From: a virus
Direction: 5' to 3' (one strand)
IMG/VR virus record: IMGVR_UViG_3300021961_000040
Location: 1-64,000 of that record
Length of the DNA: 64,000 nucleotides
Shown here: positions 10,840-21,562 of the stretch, piece by piece
Layout of the letters: every line of letters starts with the position of its first letter
Position numbering within the stretch: the first letter of the stretch is position 1
The notes under the pieces: generated by a model
Databases searched by the model: none
The model's input: the letters and a program-made list of their open reading frames with translations, nothing else
What the model was told of the DNA's origin: nothing
Position numbers and translations under genes: made by a program

Positions 10840-11835
10840 ATGAATGTTTTTATTACAGGCGAAAAAGGGTTTATCGGAAGAAACCTTGTCAAAAAATTAC
10901 AAGAGTTTGGATTTAATCACGTATCTTCAAATGCAGAATTTAAAACACCAAATGAAATCAATCTAATTTTTCATAAACCCGGTGAGCTTTGTGTTCACCA
11001 AAATGATATTTATACCTGGAAAGAGTTTTTTTATCGTACCAAAGTTGATGTTGTAATACACAATGCTGCTGTCGTTGGAACTGATGTGGTCGCACTTAAC
11101 GCAAGTGAAGCAACATTAACCAATGTTGCTGGTACTTACAATATTTGTCGTGCAGCTAAAGGCATGGGGATTCCTGTTTGCTATATGGGCACAACTGTCA
11201 TCTATGACGTCGCCAAGTATCAAGAAGTTGATATAACAGAGACTTCTATTACGGGCCCAACAACTCTTTACGGATGCCAAAAGTTATGTGCTGAAGATAT
11301 TGTTAAAAGCCAGTCAGGAAACCGATGGATGATTGTGCGTCCTCTCTTTGCTTACGGCGGCGATGGCGACATGAACTCTCTTATCGCAAAGACTGTGTAT
11401 GGCAGTTTAAATAACCGCAGTGATATTGACATGTTCTTAGATAAAGAAAAGATAAAAGATTACATGCATGTTGATGATTACTGCGACGCAGTCTTAACTG
11501 CTATTAAGATGAAGCTGTGGAATGATGACTGGAATGTGTCCGCTGAAACGCCTATGAATACTGGCGAAATCATGACTCTACTTTCTAACATGCTGGAGGA
11601 AGAACTAGGCGTTTCTTCAAATGTATTGACTTGGCACCCAGAAACTGATTATCTGGGTAATCACCGTTTATCTTCAAGAAAGTTCAGGGCAATCTCTGGC
11701 TGGGAACCAAAAATCTCTCTTGAAGAAGGTATTCGTAGAACAATTAGAGAAATTAGAGAAAGCGAAGGTTATGACCCACTTGTCCACCTTGATGAGGCAA
11801 AAGACAAAGGTGTGGACTTGACAGACTTTTATTAA
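10840..11835 (+). CDS. NAD-dependent epimerase/dehydratase (extended SDR)
   Basis: ITGEKGFIG, HNAA, YGCQK (YxxxK), DYMHVDD. Confidence 0.85.
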   Translation: MNVFITGEKGFIGRNLVKKLQEFGFNHVSSNAEFKTPNEINLIFHKPGELCVHQNDIYTWKEFFYRTKVDVVIHNAAVVGTDVVALNASEATLTNVAGTYNICRAAKGMGIPVCYMGTTVIYDVAKYQEVDITETSITGPTTLYGCQKLCAEDIVKSQSGNRWMIVRPLFAYGGDGDMNSLIAKTVYGSLNNRSDIDMFLDKEKIKDYMHVDDYCDAVLTAIKMKLWNDDWNVSAETPMNTGEIMTLLSNMLEEELGVSSNVLTWHPETDYLGNHRLSSRKFRAISGWEPKISLEEGIRRTIREIRESEGYDPLVHLDEAKDKGVDLTDFY

Positions 11836-11846
11836 AAATTTACAGA

Positions 11847-11875
11847 GTGTAAACTTAAGCCTCACATTTTATAAT
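11847..11875 (+). promoter_or_regulatory. Sigma70-like promoter for the dnaE locus (GTGTAA-N17-TATAAT); -10 lies in the loop of a terminator-like hairpin
   Basis: Exact motif; stem AGCCTCAC/GTGAGGTT followed by T-tract. Confidence 0.7.
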
Positions 11876-11904
11876 AAGTGTGAGGTTTTATTTTTAGGAG
11901 TATA

Positions 11905-11982
11905 ATGAGTATTTTTGACATTAAAGCGCCAACTCGCTTCGTAGGTCTTCACGGCCACACAGGTTATTTAGTATCTTCGTGA
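11905..11982 (+). pseudogene. Original, orphaned DnaE N-terminus MSIFDIKAPTRFVGLHGHTGY-LVSS*
   Basis: AGGAG RBS plus promoter; encodes the PHP HxH motif, then diverges after Tyr21 at the insertion point. Confidence 0.8.
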
Positions 11983-12013
11983 ATACCTAATATTAGTTAA
12001 GCTCGGAGAAAAT

Positions 12014-12940
12014 ATGCCAAATTATGTCAAAAACAAATGTGTAATATGTGAGTCTGAATTCGAAATACTATACAAGAAAAGATCGAAAAAAACATGTTCC
12101 AAAAAATGTAGTTACAAGCTTAGAAACAAGACTAGATACACAAAGCACGAACCACTTGAAAAAACATGCAAAACATGCAAAATTTGCAATCAAGTTTTTC
12201 AAGATACGTCTAAGAAAAAATTAGTTGATACATGCGCTGAATGTGTTCGCAAAAAAATGGTTTCAACAAGAAAAAACAAAGGTTCTTATACGAGAACTGA
12301 AGAACAAAATAAAAAATTATCTGAAACATTAAAAAAGAAGTATGAAGATGGATGGAACCCTAATACTAAAGAACATAAAGAAAAACTTTCAAAGATAATG
12401 AAAAATGCTTGGGCTTCTGGTGATTTTAAAAGAAAGTCTAAAGAAACATGTCTCCAAAAATATGGAACTGATCATTGGATGAAGACCGGTGAAGCAAAAC
12501 TAAAATTTTCTGATATTTTTACAGGTAGAAAGTTTTCTATAGAGACAAGAAAGAAAATGTCAAAATCTGCAGCCGAAAGAATTCGAACAGGAAAATGCAA
12601 ACTTAATTCAAATGGCAACGGATATTTTAGAAAAGACTTAAACTGCTATTTTAGAAGCAACTGGGAAGCAAATTTTGCTAGAATATGCAATTATGAAAAT
12701 TTAAATTGGCAATATGAACCTGATACGTTTTTTCTTAAAAGTGGAAAAACATACACGCCTGATTTTAAAATAGACAATGTGTACTACGAAATAAAAGGAA
12801 GCTGGCTCGGTGAAGCTTTTGAAAAGTTTCAAAATTTTAAATTAGAAAATAAAGAGTGCAAAATTGAGTTAGTAGATGGTAAAATATATCAGCTACTAAG
12901 AAGTAAATATAAAAACTTAATTAACTGGGAAGGTAAATAA
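12014..12940 (+). mobile_element. Free-standing homing endonuclease (Cys-rich Zn and NUMOD-like DNA-binding repeats plus PD-(D/E)xK nuclease) inserted in the dnaE 5' end
   Basis: CxxC repeats, KKLSETLK / ETRKKMS repeats, FRSNWEANFA...YEP...YTPDF...EIKG. Confidence 0.8.
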
Positions 12941-14664
12941 TGACAAAAAGGAGTTCCGAGAACCCTGTGTCTATGATTGCTCCTCCGACTCGTTTCGTTG
13001 GGCTTCATGGGCACACAGGGTTCTCCTAATAATCTGTATTCGATGGACTAGGTTACCCTAAGGATCACATTGATTTCGTGCTAGAAAATGGCATGGATGC
13101 TTGGGGTTTAACAGATCACGGAAACGGTAGCGGTTTGGCACACGCTCACAAGCATGCAACCAAGATTCAAAAGAGTGGTCGCAAGTATCGACAGATTTAC
13201 GGTTGCGAGTTTTATTTTGTTCCTTCGCTTTCGGGCTGGAAAGAAGAATACGATCAGGCAAAAATCGATCGATCACTTGAAAAGCAAAAGGCACTTAAAG
13301 AAGATGATGACGCAGGTCACGTTATTGAGAACGAAGATGAAACCAAGACTGTTGATATTACAAAAGACGAATGGAAACGACGTTATCACCTGGTGATCAC
13401 TGCACAAAACCGTGAAGGTTTAGGCAATTTGTTTACTCTGATCAAACGTGCGTACACAGAGGGATTCTATCGGTATCCCCGAATTGACTTCGATCTTCTC
13501 AAGCAACACGGCAGAGGCCTCAACGTCTCAACTGCTTGCTTAGGCGGTATCTTCTCTAATCGAATCATGCGCGGAAATGCATTAGGCAAATCGGACGCCG
13601 AAATTCAAGCTGAACTTATGCAGCTGTCTGATCGCTTTGTTGATGCTGTAGGTGAAGAAAACTTCTATCTTGAGCTGCAGTTTAATCGACTTAAGCAGCA
13701 GCATCTTGTCAATCATCATCTTCTTCGTCATGCTGATGAAACAGGAATTAATCTTATCGCAACTCCTGATTCTCACTATTATAATCCAGATAAATGGGAA
13801 GCAAGAGAGCTATATAAAAAGCTAGGCTGGATGGGGAATGATCCTTCGCCACTTCCTGAATTTGAAGACTTGAAGTGTGAACTCTATCCTAAAAATGCAC
13901 AGCAAATGTGGGATGAATTTACAAGGCATTACGATGAATATAAAGAAACGTATGAAGGATATGAGCAAGTCGTTAAAGACTCAATTGAAAGAACCCATGA
14001 CATTGCTTGGGAGAAGTGCACTGACTGTTGGATTGATACTAGTGTTAAGCTACCTGATTTTAACAAACCAGATCAGACGGCTTTTCAGCAGCTGGCGCAA
14101 AAAGTTAAGACGGCTTTGGTAAAAGAAGGTCTTCATACTAAAGAAGAATACGTTGAACGCGCCAAAATGGAGTTGGCTGATATCAAGTTTCTTGGCTTTG
14201 AAAACTACTTCTTGGTTATGAACGAAGTCTTCCACAAGGCAGCTGATCATACATTGTTCGGAAGCGCCAGAGGAAGTGGCGGAGGTTCTCTAGTCAACTA
14301 TCTTCTTGGCATTACTCAAATCGATCCACTCAAATATGACCTTCTTTGGGAACGATTTCTTGGAAGGCACAGATGTGTAGATCCGACCACATATATCATC
14401 TCTAAAAGCGGCAAGAAGATGATCAAAGACGTTGAGCTTGGAGAAAAGGTTCTTACGCATACAGGTGAATTCAAGCCAGTAGTTGACAAAGAAGAAGCTG
14501 TCCATGACATGGCTATCAAGATTAAATTCAAAGGACAAGAAATCTTGTGTTCACCTAATCATAGATGGGTCATTGACAGGGGTGGAAAACAGATCGAAGT
14601 CATGGCTTGTCATCTTCTAAAAGGTGATAAACTAATTAAGTATTCTAATGGAAAGTGTCTATGA
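12940..14664 (+). CDS. dnaE: DNA polymerase III alpha N-part (PHP domain plus start of palm) with N-intein; in-frame TAA TAA at 13027-13032 proposed to be bypassed
   Basis: ATG overlaps the HEG stop; FVGLHGHTGFS**SVFDG, TDHG, GCE, YHLV, TACL, PDSHY, RGSGGGSLV, LLWERFL. Confidence 0.85.
12958..13035 (+). promoter_or_regulatory. Candidate translational bypass signal: long hairpin ending at take-off codon TCC, gap TAA TAA, landing codon TCT
   Basis: GAGAACCCTGTGT (12958-12970) is the exact reverse complement of 13013-13025; inner stems CTATGA/TCATGG and CCGAC/GTTGG. Confidence 0.65.
14374..14661 (+). other. Split intein, N-fragment (96 aa)
   Basis: Starts CVDPTTYI (block A); GEKVLT; CSPNHRW (block B); LLKGD; then stop. 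Confidence 0.9.
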
Positions 14665-14858
14665 GTGAAAGATTTAATACATGCCCAAAATGTGGAGAAA
14701 TACAGTATGATGACAATATTGTCGAAGCTCACAATCCAGACACATGTGATGATAATATGAATGTTACACTTCGATGCAATAAATGTAATCACATCTGGGA
14801 GGGATGGGTAACTTCTCCTCACTATGAGAACATGCGATATCGAGGATGGATTCGATAA
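14661..14858 (+). CDS. Small Zn-ribbon protein
   Basis: CPKC...CNKC; ATGA overlap. Confidence 0.6.
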   Translation: MSERFNTCPKCGEIQYDDNIVEAHNPDTCDDNMNVTLRCNKCNHIWEGWVTSPHYENMRYRGWIR

Positions 14859-14960
14859 AGTTTGCTACGCCAGTCTCTTTAACAAAGAGGCACATAATAT
14901 CATGTTGAAAAAATACATTAAGTAATAATTACTCCTAATAATTTAAATTACATTTATAAA

Positions 14961-15281
14961 ATGATCGACCTAGACAAACTTCTTGCGCTTGATAAGCCAG
15001 AAACTAAACACAGAATGATTGATTATCTCTTCGCAAGAATTGACGATCAACTCTTTACAGAGAACCACGATCCTATCCACGAATTTCTAAAAGAGATAGA
15101 TCTTGATAAGATCTCGATTCAACTTGGAGTGGGGATCCTGTCAATCACAAAACCTCTCGGTAGGTGTGATAGTCGCATTATCTTCTCTTCGAGATTTAGA
15201 AAAAAGATTACAAAAACAGAACCAAGAGAACGAGTAGAAAGGCTTTTGTCTGGACTAGAAGAGAAGGAGAGCGAAGAATGA
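14961..15281 (+). CDS. Hypothetical protein
   Basis: ORF track. Confidence 0.55.
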   Translation: MIDLDKLLALDKPETKHRMIDYLFARIDDQLFTENHDPIHEFLKEIDLDKISIQLGVGILSITKPLGRCDSRIIFSSRFRKKITKTEPRERVERLLSGLEEKESEE

Positions 15282-15457
15282 TCACTATTAAAAAAGGTCA
15301 CCCACTTTATTCGTTGGTCAAAGCAATGAATGAGGATGAATATTCTGAACCCATTATTAAAGAGTCTGAAACGGGCGAAATTATAGTTTATACAGGGCTG
15401 GTTAAGAAGGGGCAAAAATATGTTCCCGGATCTTCCGGCCAATTGAAGGGAAAATGA
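15278..15457 (+). CDS. Hypothetical protein (59 aa, not in the ORF track)
   Basis: AGGAG RBS, ATGA overlap, MITIKKGHPLYSLVKAMNEDEY... Confidence 0.5.
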   Translation: MITIKKGHPLYSLVKAMNEDEYSEPIIKESETGEIIVYTGLVKKGQKYVPGSSGQLKGK

Positions 15458-15500
15458 GTGGTAAAAATTGCATAAAATAAAAACACAAAGAAAGGTAATA

Positions 15501-15698
15501 ATGAATCCTTCATTGCAGCGTCGAATTGAGAAGTTGGGGTTTGTTCCCGGATCAAGAAATGCAACAGAGTGGGCTGTGTCTCAACTTGAGTTAATTCACA
15601 GTTTACTAACGTCAGAAAAGTATGTCATTCTTAATCTTGCAGATTTAAATCATCACGTCATAGAACTAAAAGAAATCTTGAAAAGAGAGGAAAAATGA
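15501..15698 (+). CDS. Hypothetical protein
   Basis: AAGG RBS before ATG 15501. Confidence 0.5.
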   Translation: MNPSLQRRIEKLGFVPGSRNATEWAVSQLELIHSLLTSEKYVILNLADLNHHVIELKEILKREEK

Positions 15699-16055
15699 AA
15701 GCATCAAAAATTTTGGTACGTTATTTCGAAGAAAAACTTAAGCGCATTGATCCGAGTACTGTCAGTCTTAGTGAAGACGACTTCGAGGATGCACTTGATG
15801 AGTTTATGTACGAAAATCGTAAAGGTCATTTTCAAACCAATATTCGCAGTCTATTCTCGACATTATGAATCTTATAGCGTTGGCGTAAAAGTGAACATCC
15901 CGGAATACAACGGGTACATTGGTTGGACATATTGGTATGGCGGTGGGAAACATGGAAACCCAGAAGAGATTGAATGGGTAAGCGATGCATATTTTCTTAA
16001 TCTAGAAAAAGAAGAAGAAATTACGATTATTAAAAGAACTTTTTCTAAAGAGTAA
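15695..16055 (+). pseudogene. Frameshifted phage hypothetical gene
   Basis: Frame 1 MKASKIL...QTNIRS stops at 15868; frame 2 continues YSRHYES...GWTYWYGGGKHG; shift near 15851. Confidence 0.55.
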
Positions 16056-16270
16056 AGAGAGTGAAGGTAGAATTCGATGCGTGAATCTGCTTGTCCTGCT
16101 AAGATTAATCCTTCTTTAATTATTAGTAGAAGTTCTTTCTGCGTTATTCTTATTTTATTCCCCATTCTTTGCTAATAACTATTTCATTCACATTCTATTG
16201 TTTGATCTTGCGTAAGAAAGTTGATTGTATATATTGTGTGTAAAAAAATAATATGCAATTGTGAAAGTCA

Positions 16271-17845
16271 TCAAAGTATAATTTCAAAAATTGAATTTGT
16301 ACATCCATAGATCTTAGAGACGTTAGCTTTTTTAGCAACGTCTTTTTCTGTTAGACCTCTAGCTTTGTCTGCTTTAAATTTAAATCTATCAAATCTTTCA
16401 CTGAAGTTTGTCCACCAAAATCTTTTAGCAGTTTCGCCTTTAAACTTCATAAATGATTTGTAACAATACCCACCAATTCTATTGTCTGAGTATGTGAAAA
16501 GAGAATTGGCATGATTTTCTTTAGCAATTTTTTTTGCCCCAGAGATTATTTTTGATACTCCTCCGTTAACGTGTGTATTTAAAGCAAAAGACATTCTAGC
16601 GATCTCTAAGACCTTTCTTTTAGAATTCCTTTTCCATCTAAGCGTACATGCCCCTACTATTTCATCTTCGTGTATAATCTTAATTCCAAAGCTTGCCGGA
16701 ACGTAACCGTCAATATGCGTTTTATCGATAAAGTCTTTTAGTTCAATTGGCATGCAATATTCAACTTTGCATTTTCTACCGTGAATTTTTTTGATATTTT
16801 TACTAGCCAGCTTGTGTGCAATCATGGACTTAACAATATTTTGTTTAAACTCCCACTCATCTTGAAATAGAAACCAAAGTTCAATATTTTTTTGCTTTGC
16901 AAGTTGTCGCTTCAGTTCAGATTTATTAGGCTTGCACCTACCAGAAGCTTCGCTATGCCAGTACAAACCATCACACTCAATGCCAAAGTTTTTCTCTGGT
17001 ACGAGTATGTCTATTTCCTTACCACTCAGTGCTAATCTATCATCAACTAAAATGTCAAATCCAAGTGTTTTTATAAAGTCATTAATTTCAAGTTGCCACT
17101 TGCTAGCACACGCCTCCCAGGGCGGGAAACATTTATGACATTTACTACCGTACGTAATCGAATGAAGTGTCTTTTTTGTTTGATGATTACATTCTAAACA
17201 TTCAATAATAATACTGTCTTGATTGCCGCCGTACTTAGACAAAAGTCTGAAGTTATACTTTCTAAGTCTTTCTTCAACGTCTTCACTTTTTAGAATTTTT
17301 GCATTCGATAACGCGATCTTATGCTCTTTTGATAAAGTTTTTCCTTTTTGTGTCAAACTAGACTTTTTAGATCTTTTTGCTATCACTTCGCTTGTCTCAG
17401 AAGTCTTTCCAACTGACCAATGCGAATTTTCTTTATAAAATGTTTTCAATGATTGTGAGATTTTCTTGCTGTTTTCTTTTATATAATCAGTATTTTCTTT
17501 TGTCTTTCCTGACGCGTGGTGACCGCTTTCTTTGTAGAATTTTTTCATTGAGTCACTTGCTTTTTTAATACTAACTGAGTTTTCTTTTGTTTTTCCTTTA
17601 TTCCAGGGAATATGATTGTTCTCTTTGTAGGCCTTTTTTCTACTGCACTTGCCACACAAATTTTTAAAACCTTTTTTCATACTAATAAACTTAAGTGGTT
17701 CTCCGCAATTGCATAATCTTGATGCAGCCGGATTAATTAAGAGGAAGATATCAGAAGCTTCTAGATTGTGTTCTTTTTTAGTGTGTATAGAAAGACCTCT
17801 GCTTGACTTAAAACATTTACTACAAACTGGACACTGAATACTCAT
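16271..17845 (-). mobile_element. Homing endonuclease (C2H2 finger, NUMOD3-like repeats, Zn ribbon, Vsr/EDxHD-like nuclease) between the split dnaE halves
   Basis: CPVC...H...H; PWNKGKTKE repeats; EIDILVPEKNFGIECDGLYWHS. Confidence 0.8.
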
Positions 17846-17917
17846 TAAAACCTCTTGTTATGATCTTACTTTGTTTGCAATACTTATACACTGAAGTGAC
17901 TTGTTTATGAGATTTGA

Positions 17918-17946
17918 GTGTAAATATAAAAAAAAGTTAATATACT
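17918..17946 (+). promoter_or_regulatory. Sigma70-like promoter for dnaE-C (GTGTAA-N17-TATACT)
   Basis: Exact spacing; AAGGAG RBS follows. Confidence 0.7.
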
Positions 17947-17967
17947 ATTACTCTTAAAGGAGATAAA

Positions 17968-18105
17968 TTGCCTCAAGAATTAATTGAAATTGAAGAAATT
18001 GAGTTTATTCCTTACGCAAAAAGTATGATCGATATCGAGGTAGAAGATGACCATACTTTTTTTGTTGCGCAGGATGAAGAAAGCGATTTTGTATTGACAC
18101 ACAAT
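17968..18105 (+). other. Split intein, C-fragment (46 aa), +1 nucleophile Thr
   Basis: IDIEVEDDHTFF (block F), VLTHN|T (block G). Confidence 0.9.
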
Positions 18106-20217
18106 ACAAGCTGGCCAGATATTGATTCTGATGCAGGCGACCGCGATGCGCTTATCAATGCAGCCCGTGAACTTTACGGTTTTGAAAGTGTAATCCCTGT
18201 TTCGAATTTCAATACCCTGAAACTTAAGTCACTCGTTAAAGACATTGCTAAGTTCTATCAAATTGACTTTGCTGAGGTCAACAAGATGACTGGGCCGCTT
18301 CAAGACGAAGTCATGGCGCAAGCACGTGATGAAAACACTGAGAAGTCTGTGTTCGTTCTTAAACATGAAGATTGTATGCAGTACTCCAAGGGTTATCGAA
18401 CCTTTATGGAAAAATATCCAAAGGTAAAAGACCATATCGAAGAGCTATTTATGCAAAACCGCTCTATTGGTCGACATGCAGGTGGAGTTATTATCGGACC
18501 AGCAGATGCTTTGGCATCTTCGATGCCTATTATCGGTGTTCGAGGTGAATTGCAAACTCCTTGGACAGAAGGAATGAACTTTAGAAACTTGGAAGATAAC
18601 GGGTTTATTAAGTTTGACTTCTTGGGTTTGACGCTCCTTAAAGATGTAGAAAACTGTATTTCTAGAATTCTTACAAGAGAAACAGGAAAAGTTCCTTCAT
18701 TCCTTGAAATCAGAGACTGGTTTGACAAGCACTTAAACTGTCGTTTTGTTGAACAGGACGACCCAAAGGTCTGGGCACATGTTTATCATCAAAGACGAAA
18801 AGTTGGCGTTTTCCAGTTTACTGCTGAAGGCGCACGACGCTTCTGTGAGGATGCAAAGCCTACATCTATTATTGAGCTTGCTGCTTTGACAGCGATTTAT
18901 CGCCCAGGCCCTTTGAAAGCTAACGTCCATAAAAAATATGTCAATGACAAACAAAGAGCAGATCAAATTGAATATGCACATCCTATTATCAAAGAAGTTC
19001 TAGGGCCTACTTTTGGACATGTAACTTTCCAAGAGCAGTTCATGATTCTTGCACAGAAACTTGCAGGATTTTCTCCAGGAGAATCTGATAAGCTTAGAAA
19101 GACACTTGTCAAAAAATCACTTGATACAATCGGAAAGAAAGGTGATGAGCGCGAAGAGGCAAGACTCAAGTTTGTAAAAGGTTCTTGGGAAATCAATGGA
19201 GTACCCGAGTCTGTTTCCCAAGAACTTTGGGAAAGAATTGAGTTCTTCTCGGTATATGGATTTAACCTTTCCCATGCAGTTGCATATGCAATTGGTTCAT
19301 ATTATTCAGCTTGGCTTCACACATATTATGAGACTGACTGGCTTGCTACAATCCTTCAGTCTGAAAACGGCAATCCTAAAAACTTGGCAAAGGCAATTTC
19401 TGAAATCAAAGCAATGGGCTATAGTGTTAGTACTCCTGATGTTAACGAGTCAGGTCTTGAGTGGGTATGGTCTAAAAACAAGAAGTCGTTTATTCCACCT
19501 CTTACATCAATCAAGGGTTTAGGCAAGAATGCTGTTAAGGAAATTCTTCAAAATCGTCCTTATACTTCTCTTAGTCAGATGCTGTATGACGAAAACGGCA
19601 AATGGTATCACTCTAAGCTTAACAAAACAGGTTTTGCCGCACTTTGTATGACAGAGTCACTTGATGCTCTTGAGGAAATGTGGAAAGGTGAAATCCAAAA
19701 CCACCGACAGCTTCATGATATTATTATTGAAAATTATAACACTCTCAAGAAAAGCAAATTTGGTATGACACTTAAACAAGCAGAAAAGCAAGATGCTGAT
19801 CCTATCCTACCTCAGCTTATTATGCAGACGTCAGGCACAGAAGACTGGACACGCATCGAAAAACTTCAGTTGTATCAAGATATGTGTTCTGCAACTCGTG
19901 ATGACTTGGCATTTCCAGAAGAACTGATGACCAAAATTCGAAGTGCTAATGTAAAATCAGTCTTGCAAATGGATCCAGGAGAGAAAGGTATCTCTTGGTT
20001 TTGTGTTGTCGAAACAATTAAAAAGACTACAAAAAATAAAAAGGTCTTCTATCGTGTTAAGATTACAGATGAAGAAAGCAATTCTGGCTGGCTTCGTGTC
20101 TGGGGAGAAGTTCCAAGCTCTATGGAGCCTTATACAATATGGTTAGCCAATGCCTCAAATGACCCCAACTGGGGAGCTTCGACAAACTCTGCAAAAATCC
20201 GCCCACTTGTCAAGTAA
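17968..20217 (+). CDS. dnaE: DNA polymerase III alpha C-part with C-intein
   Basis: IntC then TSWPDIDSD, GRHAGG, KFDFLGL, RPGP, FQEQ, YGFNLSHA, PDVN, IKGLG, OB fold. Confidence 0.92.
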   Translation: MPQELIEIEEIEFIPYAKSMIDIEVEDDHTFFVAQDEESDFVLTHNTSWPDIDSDAGDRDALINAARELYGFESVIPVSNFNTLKLKSLVKDIAKFYQIDFAEVNKMTGPLQDEVMAQARDENTEKSVFVLKHEDCMQYSKGYRTFMEKYPKVKDHIEELFMQNRSIGRHAGGVIIGPADALASSMPIIGVRGELQTPWTEGMNFRNLEDNGFIKFDFLGLTLLKDVENCISRILTRETGKVPSFLEIRDWFDKHLNCRFVEQDDPKVWAHVYHQRRKVGVFQFTAEGARRFCEDAKPTSIIELAALTAIYRPGPLKANVHKKYVNDKQRADQIEYAHPIIKEVLGPTFGHVTFQEQFMILAQKLAGFSPGESDKLRKTLVKKSLDTIGKKGDEREEARLKFVKGSWEINGVPESVSQELWERIEFFSVYGFNLSHAVAYAIGSYYSAWLHTYYETDWLATILQSENGNPKNLAKAISEIKAMGYSVSTPDVNESGLEWVWSKNKKSFIPPLTSIKGLGKNAVKEILQNRPYTSLSQMLYDENGKWYHSKLNKTGFAALCMTESLDALEEMWKGEIQNHRQLHDIIIENYNTLKKSKFGMTLKQAEKQDADPILPQLIMQTSGTEDWTRIEKLQLYQDMCSATRDDLAFPEELMTKIRSANVKSVLQMDPGEKGISWFCVVETIKKTTKNKKVFYRVKITDEESNSGWLRVWGEVPSSMEPYTIWLANASNDPNWGASTNSAKIRPLVK

Positions 20218-20470
20218 AAAGATTACTAAGAAAGCTTTTTCACAAAATAAAAGTTTTGTTCTTGAAAATCTTTATCCTGGAGACGTAATTTCTTATTACT
20301 ATTATTATGGGCCAGATGCTGAAAAAGATGTTAAGTATGCAATTGTCATAGATGTTAGCAAGGGAAAGAAGAAATGGTTAAGAAAGTATAAGATACTTAC
20401 TGAGCATATTCTTTGGGAACCATGCCACAAGGATTTAGAAAAAAACTACAGAATAGAAAAGGTAAAGTAA
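20207..20470 (+). CDS. Hypothetical protein (start uncertain)
   Basis: Fills the gap between dnaE and guaC. Confidence 0.45.
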   Translation: MSSKKITKKAFSQNKSFVLENLYPGDVISYYYYYGPDAEKDVKYAIVIDVSKGKKKWLRKYKILTEHILWEPCHKDLEKNYRIEKVK

Positions 20471-21562
20471 ATGAGAATTGAAGAAGATTTAAAGTTAGAT
20501 TTTAAAGATGTTTTAATACGACCTAAGCGGTCAGAAGCAAAGAGTAGAAAAGATGTAGTCCTTGATAGAAAATATACATTTAGAAATGGCACAACGTGGG
20601 AAGGAATTCCTATTATTGCTGCCAATATGGATGGTGTAGGAACATTTGAGATGTCAAGAGTCTTAAACAGACACGGTCTTATGACATGCTTAGTAAAGTC
20701 ATACGAGTATGATGACTACGTTGAAAATCTTTCTAAACTGGTTCCATCAACTACTATTTTGTCCACAGGAATATCTTTAACAGATCTAGAAAAAACTCAA
20801 AACATTGTCGATGCTTTTAAAGCAAACATAGAGTTTGTTTGTATAGACGTAGCAAATGGTTACTCAGAATATTTTGTTGATTTTGTGAGGCGTTTTAAAG
20901 AAAGAAATCCACACATAACACTTATCGCAGGTAATGTTGTCACTGCTGATATGACTCAAGAACTAATTCTTGCAGGTGCTGACATTGTGAAAGTAGGTAT
21001 TGGACCAGGAAGTGTTTGCATTACGCGAATTAAGACAGGTGTGGGCTACCCGCAGCTTTCGGCAATCATAGAATGTGCTGATGCAGCACACGGATTGGGC
21101 GGCCACATCATTGCCGACGGTGGGTGCACTTGCCCAGGAGACGTTGCAAAGGCATTTGCAGCAGGAGCAGATTTTGTCATGATGGGTGGAATGTTTGCAG
21201 GTCACATCGAGGGCGGCGGCGAAGTTATCACAAAAAGATTTAAGACTTCTGAAAGAGAAGTTTATGATGATGGAGAAACAGGTGACCCCGTCTTCGAAGA
21301 CAAGAAGTACGTGACTTTTTATGGTATGTCTTCAGACACCGCTATGAACAAACACTCCGGAGGTGTAGCTGAGTACCGTGCTTCTGAGGGTAGAACAGTT
21401 GAAGTACCTTTTAAGGGAAGTGTTGATGACACTGTAAAAGATTTGCTAGGCGGTTTAAGATCTACATGTACATATGTGGGAGCTTCTTCACTTAAGCAGC
21501 TTAGTAAATGTGCTACATTTGTTAGAGTAACACAGCAATTTAACGGAGTGTTTGTAAAATGA
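20471..21562 (+). CDS. guaC: GMP reductase
   Basis: [46 protein letters not shown]. Confidence 0.95.

Follow-up and report, generated by a model that had tools for sequence, protein, structure and literature searches.

The interrupted dnaE locus

The window analysed here is a stretch of 64,000 nt from an uncultured marine phage. Its dnaE is broken by two stop codons after 29 codons, and the break arrived together with a selfish nuclease gene (Table 1). In the frame that starts at ATG 12940 the codons read CAC ACA GGG TTC TCC (13024-26) TAA (13027-29) TAA (13030-32) TCT (13033-35) GTA TTC GAT GGA. An earlier note on this DNA had stated that the frame stays open through 14664 after the break, and the sequence agrees. 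When TCC is joined directly to TCT, as that note proposed, the translation becomes HGHTGFSVFDG, identical to that of the closest uninterrupted relatives (L001-L003 and L005). With the 29-codon segment included, the match to Pfam PHP spans profile positions 2-162; without it, 9-162. ORF finders call the gene at 13078-14664.

A blastn search with positions 11800-14700 against GenBank phages gave no match. At the protein level the only relatives found are ~30% identical, which leaves no cultured relative against which the annotation or the biology could be checked.

Further downstream, at 14374-18108, a split intein also divides the same dnaE, and a nuclease gene separates its halves. This resembles the published "fractured genes," which are split inteins with a nuclease gene between the two parts (PMC2677866). 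Protein trans-splicing is no translational event, unlike the hop considered below, and the split is separate from the feature at 12940-13050. One dnaE here holds two different selfish-element solutions.

Table 1. Features of the dnaE region, with positions in the window.
Feature	Position	Strand	Remarks
Copy 1, original dnaE start, MSIFDIKAPTRFVGLHGHTGY	11905..11982	+	cut after TAT 11965-67, stop 4 codons on
TAGTAT box	11969..11974	+	5′ end of cassette
Free-standing homing endonuclease gene, 308 aa	12014..12940	+	ends WEGK-stop; stop overlaps next ATG (TAATG)
Replacement DnaE N-terminus, cassette-borne, 29 codons, MTKRSSENPVSMIAPPTRFVGLHGHTGFS	12940..13026	+	carries PHP HxH metal-ligand motif
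Shine-Dalgarno-like AGGAG	12949..12953	+	4 nt 5′ of stem
Hairpin 5′ arm	12958..12970	+
Hairpin 3′ arm	13013..13025	+	ends on second base of putative take-off codon
Putative take-off codon TCC (Ser)	13024..13026	+
Coding gap, tandem stops TAA TAA	13027..13032	+
Putative landing codon TCT (Ser)	13033..13035	+	first and only TCN triplet past take-off
Resumed DnaE: remaining PHP, part of polymerase core, N-half of split intein	13036..14664	+
Second, unrelated homing endonuclease gene	16271..17845	-	PHROG 3339, E = 7e-51; between split-intein dnaE halves
DnaE C-terminal half	17968..20217	+	begins with split-intein C-half

The mobile cassette and its nuclease gene

The break is part of a cassette with three components: a homing endonuclease gene of the PD-(D/E)xK type, a dnaE N-terminus that replaces the original, and the gap itself. 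The N-terminal modules of the nuclease are Cys-rich, and its C-terminal domain is PD-(D/E)xK-like (..TYTPDFKI..YYEIKG..). The protein matches Pfam DUF7487 weakly, and its matches in PHROGs are endonuclease, resolvase, and homing-endonuclease families. A single-protein query found no nuclease homologs in IMG/VR, and they were retrieved only with a query built from an alignment. These homologs are located directly upstream of interrupted dnaE alleles, which bears out the suggested link between the break and a homing endonuclease, as for T4 gene 60 and mobA. Nuclease identities fall as low as ~42%, and the HxHxxFS motif is kept in every cassette lineage. Among the best 80 relatives, 63 are uninterrupted and 17 are interrupted at the dnaE site. 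Where the nuclease gene has decayed or is gone, dnaE is open for at least 518 codons. Judged by presence and absence among close relatives, nuclease fold and co-conversion of flanking markers, the cassette appears to be a free-standing homing endonuclease element.

A shortened second copy of the N-terminus (copy 1, 11905-11967) precedes the nuclease gene and is the left homology arm and remnant of the cassette insertion. Equivalent remnants are found upstream of the nuclease gene in ~20 related loci, and they are missing in L074, L080, L087, L088, and L095. Relative to copy 1, the replacement N-terminus (copy 2) has synonymous changes at third positions of codons. It had been claimed that these changes fall mostly in the stems of an mRNA hairpin; some are indeed in predicted stems, and others are at unpaired positions. 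A TAGTATG-like box occupies the same position in most cassettes, including those that lack a copy-1 remnant, and is a possible -10 element for the nuclease gene.

Copy 1 raises the question of removal at the RNA level. Splicing of the cassette from copy 1 (after TAT 11967) to TCT 13033 would also give the native protein (HGHTGY + SVFDG), and phage group I introns often carry nuclease genes; otherwise, the short gap itself might be edited or cut out. The five loci without a copy of the 5′ exon have no upstream piece to splice. Copy 2 retains coding capacity and the HxH motif, neither of which an intron would need, and the flanks of the nuclease ORF are just 46 nt and 92 nt. The last base of the cassette is A, not the G of canonical splice sites, in nearly all variants. 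A search of 11000-21000 with Rfam at E-values up to 1 found no intron and only a chance sRNA match. To our knowledge, no bacterial system excises 2-12 nt from an mRNA. We regard RNA removal as highly improbable.

Junctions in related phages

Searching other phage dnaE genes for matched codons around stops, as the earlier note had advised, yielded 51 interrupted alleles (independent metagenomic loci broken at the same motif) with 23 distinct junctions, which we compared with 69 uninterrupted alleles. The putative take-off codon is a TCN Ser codon followed immediately by a stop in all 23. L087 is an exception, with GAA in place of the stop, and counts against a hop. Gaps are 2-9 nt long, or 35-37 nt with a hairpin of their own, and frames 0, +1, and +2 are all represented. 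The landing codon is TCN in 19 of the 23 junctions; in the other four it is ACG, GCG, or TTG and keeps two of the three bases of the take-off codon. In the short TCN junctions the landing codon is the first and only TCN triplet past take-off (15/15). Hopping across every junction, whichever the frame, would give the native PHP spacing of the 69 uninterrupted alleles. The predictions that the Ser-to-Ser hop makes for the sequence all hold in the window and in the 23 junction variants, which share ancestry and hence are not independent trials.

The gap of the window is in frame, and readthrough of both its stops would add three residues to the protein. Stop readthrough, whether plain, by a suppressor tRNA or through an altered genetic code, is difficult to reconcile with the 13 of 23 junctions that are out of frame. 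The stops in the window are tandem TAA codons, the neighboring nuclease gene also ends in TAA, and the 13 phage tRNAs include no suppressor. Readthrough is scarcely credible as an explanation.

The landing position is Ser in 69/69 uninterrupted alleles. The non-Ser landing codons would be silent if hopped, but would be substitutions under any model that decodes them, which favors a hop. In addition, AGY Ser codons are absent from the interrupted alleles vs. 46% in the uninterrupted ones. This absence is suggestive of a hop and is not taken as strong evidence because the junctions share ancestry.

Another reading is that the gene is damaged. DnaE would then be made without its first strand, from GTG 13078 or ATG 13093, or another polymerase would be used, and the gap would be tolerated junk of the nuclease cassette. 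The coordinates called by ORF finders fit such a start, many DnaE PHP domains are catalytically inactive, and, with the record only ~48% complete, a further polymerase might be encoded outside it. In the interrupted alleles, however, purifying selection is strong on the codons that separate the landing site from the next start. The 22 codons past landing hold 697 synonymous vs. 98 non-synonymous pairwise differences, a signal that could partly pre-date recent cassette invasions. The retention of HxHxxFS and the covariation of the hairpin (see below) also speak against damage, and neither PolA nor PolB was found in the 108 kb of the record. We consider a damaged gene very unlikely.

A conserved hairpin and a Shine-Dalgarno-like box

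The 13-bp stem described earlier for the window is present, as 12958-12970 (GAGAACCCTGTGT) is the perfect reverse complement of 13013-13025 (ACACAGGGTTCTC). The two inner stems that had been proposed with it are predicted by RNAfold as well (fold of -38.1 kcal/mol, z = -4.8). Across the variants, 94.9% of cells at the 13 stem pairs are paired, compared to 31-49% in slid controls, and 8/13 pairs have compensatory changes on both sides. The stem is 10-15 bp long in the family and ends at the take-off codon. Fold z-scores range from -4.3 to -6.2 in interrupted alleles vs. -0.1 in the uninterrupted L001. In L086, L085, and L211 the take-off codon is three codons earlier (HxHS|), and the stem has shifted along with it. 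L080 has no hairpin (z = -0.5) and counts against a hop.

The window is part of a single metagenomic contig, and the stops might be suspected to come from assembly or sequencing. The same architecture is found in 51 loci from many samples, with covarying stems, and the closest relative, L006, has the hairpin and N-peptide of the window but a different gap. The probability of an artefact is negligible, and chance does not account for the break either. Frameshifting, readthrough, a suppressor tRNA, copy-1 splicing, and assembly error were each considered as causes and rejected.

The AGGAG box is invariant in 12/12 aligned variants, though the encoded residues vary. It is located 5′ of the hairpin, 4-8 nt from the stem across variants and outside the gap, and closing the stem puts it ~10 nt from the junction. 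Perhaps it aids a hop. A hairpin-bridged Shine-Dalgarno (SD)-like box is also what a restart site is expected to look like, which counts against a hop. Hairpin-bridged ("split") ribosome-binding sites occur in T4 genes 38 and 25, where initiation is at AUG. As in those sites, the dnaE hairpin would bring a distant SD to the site of action; unlike them, most dnaE junctions have no start codon.

Termination followed by restart is the main rival to a hop. The 29-residue peptide would be freed at UAA and would supply the HxH strand of the barrel in trans, so that the PHP domain would consist of two pieces. With the hairpin-bridged AGGAG holding it in place, the same ribosome would resume at or beside the landing codon, using initiator tRNA on a weak start or else the deacylated tRNA-Ser, which would re-pair there. 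The invariance and spacing of AGGAG are consistent with this, as is the conservation of the HxH peptide in all variants. Three relatives have canonical starts that overlap or abut the stop, namely L067 (TCGTGA with GTG AAG TTG GTT), L074 (TAATG AAG TCC), and L088 (TAG GTG TCT). These restart codons count against a hop and leave room for termination and restart, a correction to the earlier note, whose reading of a hop is supported.

In the window and at most other junctions the right frame contains no ATG, GTG, or TTG. No canonical in-frame start exists between the last stop and the DG motif in the window, L007, L018, L057, L095, L085, L086, L213, and others. The codon ahead of landing varies (TAA, AAA, ATA, GTA, AAC, and others), with no start in common. 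A restart would also leave three things unexplained: the peptide invariably stops right on a TCN Ser codon, resumption is always at the next TCN, and non-Ser landing codons keep two of three bases at a position where Ser is invariant. Two Asp of the conserved N-terminal PHP motif are replaced in L068, which is related to L067 and has no matched landing codon. We rate termination and restart as unlikely.

A proposed short stop-hop

The reading that we regard as probable is that the window gap is passed by a programmed short stop-hop of peptidyl-tRNA-Ser, which would be a miniature counterpart of T4 gene 60/mobA. We infer the hop, and the parts played in it by the hairpin, the SD-like box, and the nuclease target, from the anatomy, conservation, and comparative rules of the cassette. 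By analogy to MobA and gene 60, the cassette would have entered between the F and S codons of the PHP motif HxHxxFSxxDG, probably the target of its own nuclease, and the gap would destroy that target and make the carrier immune. From ATG 12940, where initiation would be coupled to the end of the nuclease gene, ribosomes would make the 29-residue peptide and, at TCC, meet UAA in the A site. The peptidyl-tRNA-Ser would leave UCC with the chain not terminated. The mRNA would slide by 9 nt, aided by the 13-bp hairpin re-forming as its 3′ arm exits the ribosome and perhaps by AGGAG, which the hairpin would bring near the anti-SD. The tRNA would re-pair at UCU 13033-35 and decoding would resume from GTA. 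The product would be one polypeptide with the native ...HGHTGFSVFDG..., and the junction peptide expected from the hop is FVGLHGHTGFSVFDGLGYPK.

The hop had been assigned to tRNA-Ser(GGA) as reader of both codons. The record encodes 13 phage tRNAs at 85-101 kb, including a tRNA-Ser(UGA) that could read both, and tRNA-Ser(GGA) is not required as the actor. ARAGORN found no tRNA genes inside the window. Two points of background count against a hop. The tandem stops of the window are followed by T, and UAA UAA then U is a strong terminator in E. coli, where unaided stop-hops are also inefficient.

For the family as a whole, we lean toward a large natural set of programmed short-range hops (5-12 nt; 38-40 nt in two members) independent of T4 gene 60. 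The hop would measure 11 nt in L007, 12 nt in L095, and 40 nt in L085. A hairpin re-forming behind the ribosome would pull the mRNA by about the length of the gap, and a PD-(D/E)xK homing endonuclease would have spread the hops as a form of self-immunity within the catalytic motif of a replicative polymerase.

Comparison with known bypass systems

T4 gene 60 has a 50-nt translational bypass inside a MobA homing-endonuclease element. In cassettes of this kind the codons are paired, a stop follows take-off, and an SD, RNA structures, and a mobile nuclease are present; all published ones are in topoisomerase genes; pairing of the exiting mRNA has been proposed to drive forward movement (bioRxiv 10.1101/2022.08.31.505936; bioRxiv 10.1101/2024.12.09.627546). 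The dnaE cassette has much in common with them. The first coding segment is short and directly preceded by a free-standing nuclease gene, the take-off and landing codons are paired with a wobble base that may differ, a stop follows take-off, and an mRNA stem-loop 5′ of take-off is accompanied by an SD-like element. Both cassettes are present or absent among close relatives, and in both the nuclease gene may decay while the gap stays. L085 and L211 strongly resemble gene 60: their gaps are 35-37 nt, the stop is followed at once by a GC hairpin, and this hairpin hides a cognate codon.

There are also differences. The host gene is dnaE, in its PHP domain, rather than a topoisomerase subunit, and the nuclease is PD-(D/E)xK-like with DUF7487 modules, whereas MobA is an HNH enzyme. 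The paired codons encode Ser and not Gly or Asp. The dnaE gap is mostly 2-9 nt, too small to hold a take-off stem-loop or an SD, and the SD-like box is instead 5′ of the hairpin. In gene 60 the 3′ arm of the stem is 9 nt upstream of take-off, whereas the dnaE arm adjoins the take-off codon or overlaps it. The nascent chains are short (~14-35 residues), have only the native PHP motif in common and carry no recognizable gene 60 peptide signal. The element had been described as independent and minimal. It is not isolated, being a member of a widespread cassette family. The dnaE cassette and the gene 60/MobA cassette have no sequence homology. Judged by its sequence, host gene, and nuclease family, the dnaE cassette is an analog of the gene 60/MobA lineage and not a member.

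Synthetic stop-hops in E. coli use matched codons around a stop, so that 9 nt are read as one residue; they are of low efficiency and unprogrammed, and a review states that natural in-frame stop hopping has no known occurrences (PMC5009743). We found no natural stop-hop in the literature searched. The dnaE junctions have the same order of codon, stop, and matched codon. TCG TAG TCG in L213 and L215 is an exact natural counterpart, and the window differs from the synthetic constructs only in having two stops. Unlike the synthetic hops, the dnaE hop would be one on which an essential enzyme depends, and a conserved hairpin and SD-like box accompany it.

Blocks of inserted nucleotides called byps are found in Magnusiomyces capitatus mitochondria, with 81 inserts (PMC5009743). 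Like the dnaE gaps, they are mobile, short, non-coding inserts in essential genes that are (or, for dnaE, would be) skipped in translation. Unlike them, byps are mitochondrial, have no nuclease gene attached, and follow other sequence rules. Byps are also longer than most of the dnaE gaps.

Implications

Programmed translational bypassing is a very rare way to read a gene, and for decades it rested on one case in bacterial viruses, T4 gene 60 with its direct homologs in topoisomerase genes. If the hop is real, dnaE would provide a second, independent and much simpler system. The variants form a natural mutational series with dozens of members, in which gaps range from 2 to 37 nt, each of the three frames is represented, there are two take-off sites, and junctions occur with and without a restart codon. 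Such a series is suited to asking why the ribosome lets go of a codon and where landing falls, and recoding elements this compact (~100 nt) may be of use in reporters and synthetic biology. The cassette would show how a homing endonuclease can settle in an essential gene, even in its most conserved motif, while the carrier survives. It also serves as a warning: in many phage genomes dnaE is mis-annotated as truncated, and the same probably holds for other genes. If the hop holds, bypassing would be a recurrent solution for selfish elements entering essential genes, and one that gene finders routinely miss.

Structure of the interrupted dnaE

The break in dnaE is confirmed as observed (see table; L-numbers denote related loci). 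As the earlier note had claimed, a TCC codon (the take-off codon) is followed by tandem TAA stops and TCT (the landing codon), after which the same frame continues as VFDGLGYPKDH... and stays open to 14664. The ORF after the break encodes the PHP domain and pol III alpha core of DnaE. The perfect 13-bp stem ending within the take-off codon, also claimed there, was recovered by reverse-complement match, and RNAfold gave a window fold of -38.1 kcal/mol (z = -4.8) with two further inner stems, likewise as claimed. The last part of the downstream ORF is the N-half of a split intein.

The same dnaE is also divided by the split intein, whose halves are separated by a minus-strand gene for a 524-aa homing endonuclease (PHROG 3339). 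The intein C-half and the remainder of DnaE lie beyond this second nuclease gene. Intein halves with a nuclease gene between them have been described as a "fractured gene" arrangement (PMC2677866).

Features of the interrupted dnaE region and gap junctions in related loci (window positions unless stated)
Feature	Position	Strand	Description
Copy 1 of the DnaE N-terminus	ATG 11905		own AGGAG, terminator-like hairpin upstream; ends after TAT 11965-67, stop four codons on
TAGTATG-like box	11969-11974		~40 nt before nuclease start
Nuclease ORF, 308 aa	12014-12940		Cys-rich modules and C-terminal PD-(D/E)xK-like nuclease motif
dnaE first segment	ATG 12940	+	frame MTKRSSENPVSMIAPPTRFVGLHGHTGFS, then TCC 13024-26, TAA, TAA, TCT 13033-35
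Stem 5′ arm	12958-12970
Stem 3′ arm	13013-13025		exact reverse complement of the 5′ arm; finishes at second base of TCC
Split intein region	14374-18108		halves with 524-aa nuclease gene between
Intein C-half and DnaE remainder	17968-20217
tRNA-Ser(UGA) gene	85408-85495 of record, outside window		could read both Ser codons
Window junction			TCC-TAATAA-TCT
L006 junction			TCT-TGAAAAA-TCT
L007 junction			TCG-TAATAATA-TCA
L018 junction			TCG-TAGATA-TCT
L057 junction			TCC-TAGGTA-TCT
L074 junction			TCC-TAATGAAG-TCC
L095 junction			TCG-TGACCTAAA-TCG
L213 junction			TCG-TAG-TCG

The nuclease cassette

The DnaE N-terminal segment PTRFVGLHGHTG is encoded twice, upstream (copy 1) and downstream (copy 2) of the 308-aa nuclease gene, whose TAA overlaps the copy 2 ATG. 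This layout places the break at the right edge of an inserted cassette consisting of the nuclease gene, the replacement N-terminus and the gap. The nuclease has a weak match to Pfam DUF7487 and matches endonuclease and homing-endonuclease families in PHROGs. The left junctions of the cassettes vary by 0-2 codons around F|S, which would fit nuclease cleavage at F|S with the gap conferring immunity as in MobA, for which immunity from the gap has been shown.

The 5′ boundary of the cassette is marked by the TAGTATG-like box. An equivalent box is conserved in L007, L057, L074, L080, L087 and L088, and may act as a promoter belonging to the cassette itself. The nuclease has more distant homologues (38-45% identity) directly 5′ of uninterrupted dnaE in L093 (2236-2330) and L090 (downstream of 2265). 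The dnaE motif behind them has diverged (SANDGLGYP, SIGDAIGTP), and immunity in these loci may be through target divergence instead of a gap.

Junctions in related loci

Matched codons flanking stops, which the earlier note had suggested seeking in other phage dnaE genes, recur among the ~220 loci that four collection scans gave. Among the best 80 IMG/VR DnaE relatives, 63 are uninterrupted and 17 interrupted; uninterrupted alleles, e.g., L001-L003 (92-95% identity), read ...HGHTGFSVFDG... without a nuclease gene. All loci pooled gave 51 interrupted alleles, among which 23 junctions are distinct. A TCN Ser codon immediately followed by TAA, TAG or TGA is found in 23/23. The gap is 2-9 nt in 20 junctions and all three frames are represented. 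The landing codon is TCN in 19/23, the other four having ACG, GCG or TTG, and in 15/15 short TCN junctions the landing TCN is the first and sole TCN triplet after take-off in any frame. In every junction, the native PHP motif spacing, claimed earlier for the window, returns when the first Ser codon is joined directly to what follows the landing codon.

In the L087 junction (1803-1898), TCA-GAACAAA-TCT, take-off is followed by the sense codon GAA and not by a stop; its zero frame is open for >25 codons. Possible explanations are a defective allele, an indel error or a stop-less hop.

Three loci use an earlier Ser. In L086 the break is three codons earlier (HAHS TCG-TGAACCAAC-TCA GGA TTC), making it the 21st short-gap junction, and a 10-bp stem (ACGAGTGGGC/GCCCACTCGT) and AGGAGG box have shifted along with take-off. 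The gaps of L085 (935-1052) and L211 (junction near 1440-1500) are 37 and 35 nt, respectively; each gap begins with the stop, followed by a GC-rich 8-11-bp hairpin, and has a cognate TCN hidden within it.

The interrupted genes appear to be in use. In the L018/L057 clade, pairwise codon differences over the 22 codons from the landing codon to the next canonical start number 697 synonymous and 98 non-synonymous. HxHxxFS is retained by all cassette lineages. With the N-peptide, the protein matches Pfam PHP over profile positions 2-162, and over 9-162 when that peptide is left out; thus the N-peptide provides the HxH strand. dnaE remains open for 518 to >820 codons despite a decayed or missing nuclease gene in six loci (L006, L019, L185, L213, L206, L211). 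We did not find a family A or B polymerase in the 108-kb phage record (~48% complete).

Hairpin and SD-like box

Covariation of the stem was scored in an alignment of 12 divergent variants. Across its 13 pairs, 94.9% of cells are paired and eight pairs have changed on both sides, against 31-49% and 0-3 pairs in controls slid by 1-3 columns. The L074 and L095 stems contain G-U pairs, as an RNA structure would predict. Interrupted alleles fold with z-scores of -4.3 to -6.2, against -0.1 for uninterrupted L001; stemless L080 scores -0.5. The 3′ arm is constrained by the xxFS codons and the 5′ arm lies within the cassette-specific N-terminal extension, so the requirement for pairing sets the sequence of that extension. 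The AGGAG found 4-8 nt 5′ of the stem is invariant in the 12 variants despite differing encoded residues (KRS, ERR, KGG, KEK).

Hop, restart and other readings

A ribosomal hop from Ser to Ser, as proposed earlier, is probably how the gap is crossed, and is supported as far as sequence comparison permits. Readthrough of the stops was rejected because the gap shifts the frame in 13/23 junctions and the window carries two stops in a row. Splicing from copy 1 was also rejected, since Rfam gave no intron, the cassette's 3′ end is A, and copy 1 is entirely missing in L074, L080, L087, L088 and L095. All readings other than a hop or a restart are improbable, even taken together.

Termination with restart, giving a split PHP domain, is unlikely. 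It requires a start codon, but the stretch from the last stop to the DG motif has none in frame in the window or in L007, L018, L057, L084, L095, L080, L085 and L086; in L006 and L087 an ATG of the new frame lies 12 codons upstream. Three junctions do supply a start codon (GTGA overlap in L067, TAATG overlap in L074, TAG GTG TCT in L088), so restart stays a genuine rival for part of the cassette family.

The landing codon would separate a hop from any model that decodes it. Ser occupies this position in 69/69 distinct uninterrupted alleles, with AGY codons in 46% of them; AGY is never found there in interrupted alleles. The non-Ser landing codons, ACG (L080, L223), GCG (L050) and TTG (L067), keep 2/3 bases of the take-off TCG. 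They would be silent if peptidyl-tRNA-Ser only re-pairs there, and would replace an invariant Ser if translated. L068 (downstream of 1058), a relative of L067, lacks a matched landing codon, and its TAA, where L067 has TGA, removes the GTG restart. Its motifs are VCGG and AGH, vs. VYDG and ADH in L067. This single case suggests decay where the hop was lost, in what may be a cassette with failed recoding.

Proposed mechanism and relation to gene 60

Under the hop, ATG 12940 would be the start, its use coupled to the nuclease gene's end. Once UCC occupies the P site and UAA the A site, peptidyl-tRNA-Ser would unpair, and the 3′ arm leaving the ribosome would pair with the free 5′ arm and draw the mRNA forward, a role also proposed for exiting-mRNA pairing in gene 60. 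The 3′ arm spans approximately -11 to +2 of the take-off codon, so full closure would require a shift close to the observed hops (5-12 nt), after which the tRNA would re-pair at the first UCN. AGGAG, brought beside the junction by the closed stem, may bind the anti-SD, as does the gene 60 GAG that lies 6 nt before the landing site. The record has 13 tRNA genes (G000:C1:85233-100640, outside the window), including tRNA-Ser(UGA) and no suppressor. With its tmRNA search on, ARAGORN gave no tmRNA in either the window or the whole record.

The gaps of L085 and L211 closely resemble that of T4 gene 60, in which ribosomes do not scan a cognate GGG in its 5′ part; they too hide a cognate codon. In layout they are the nearest natural look-alikes of that gap, yet lie within dnaE. 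A 2016 review notes that synthetic stop-hops exist and shorter natural counterparts have long been presumed, with no known occurrences of natural in-frame stop hopping (PMC5009743). A full-text literature search found no dnaE hops. The gene 60 cassettes described to date are all in topoisomerase genes of myoviruses. Judged by comparison of alleles, the dnaE feature is probably likewise nuclease-linked translational bypassing, but in a new gene, with a new architecture and far shorter gaps.
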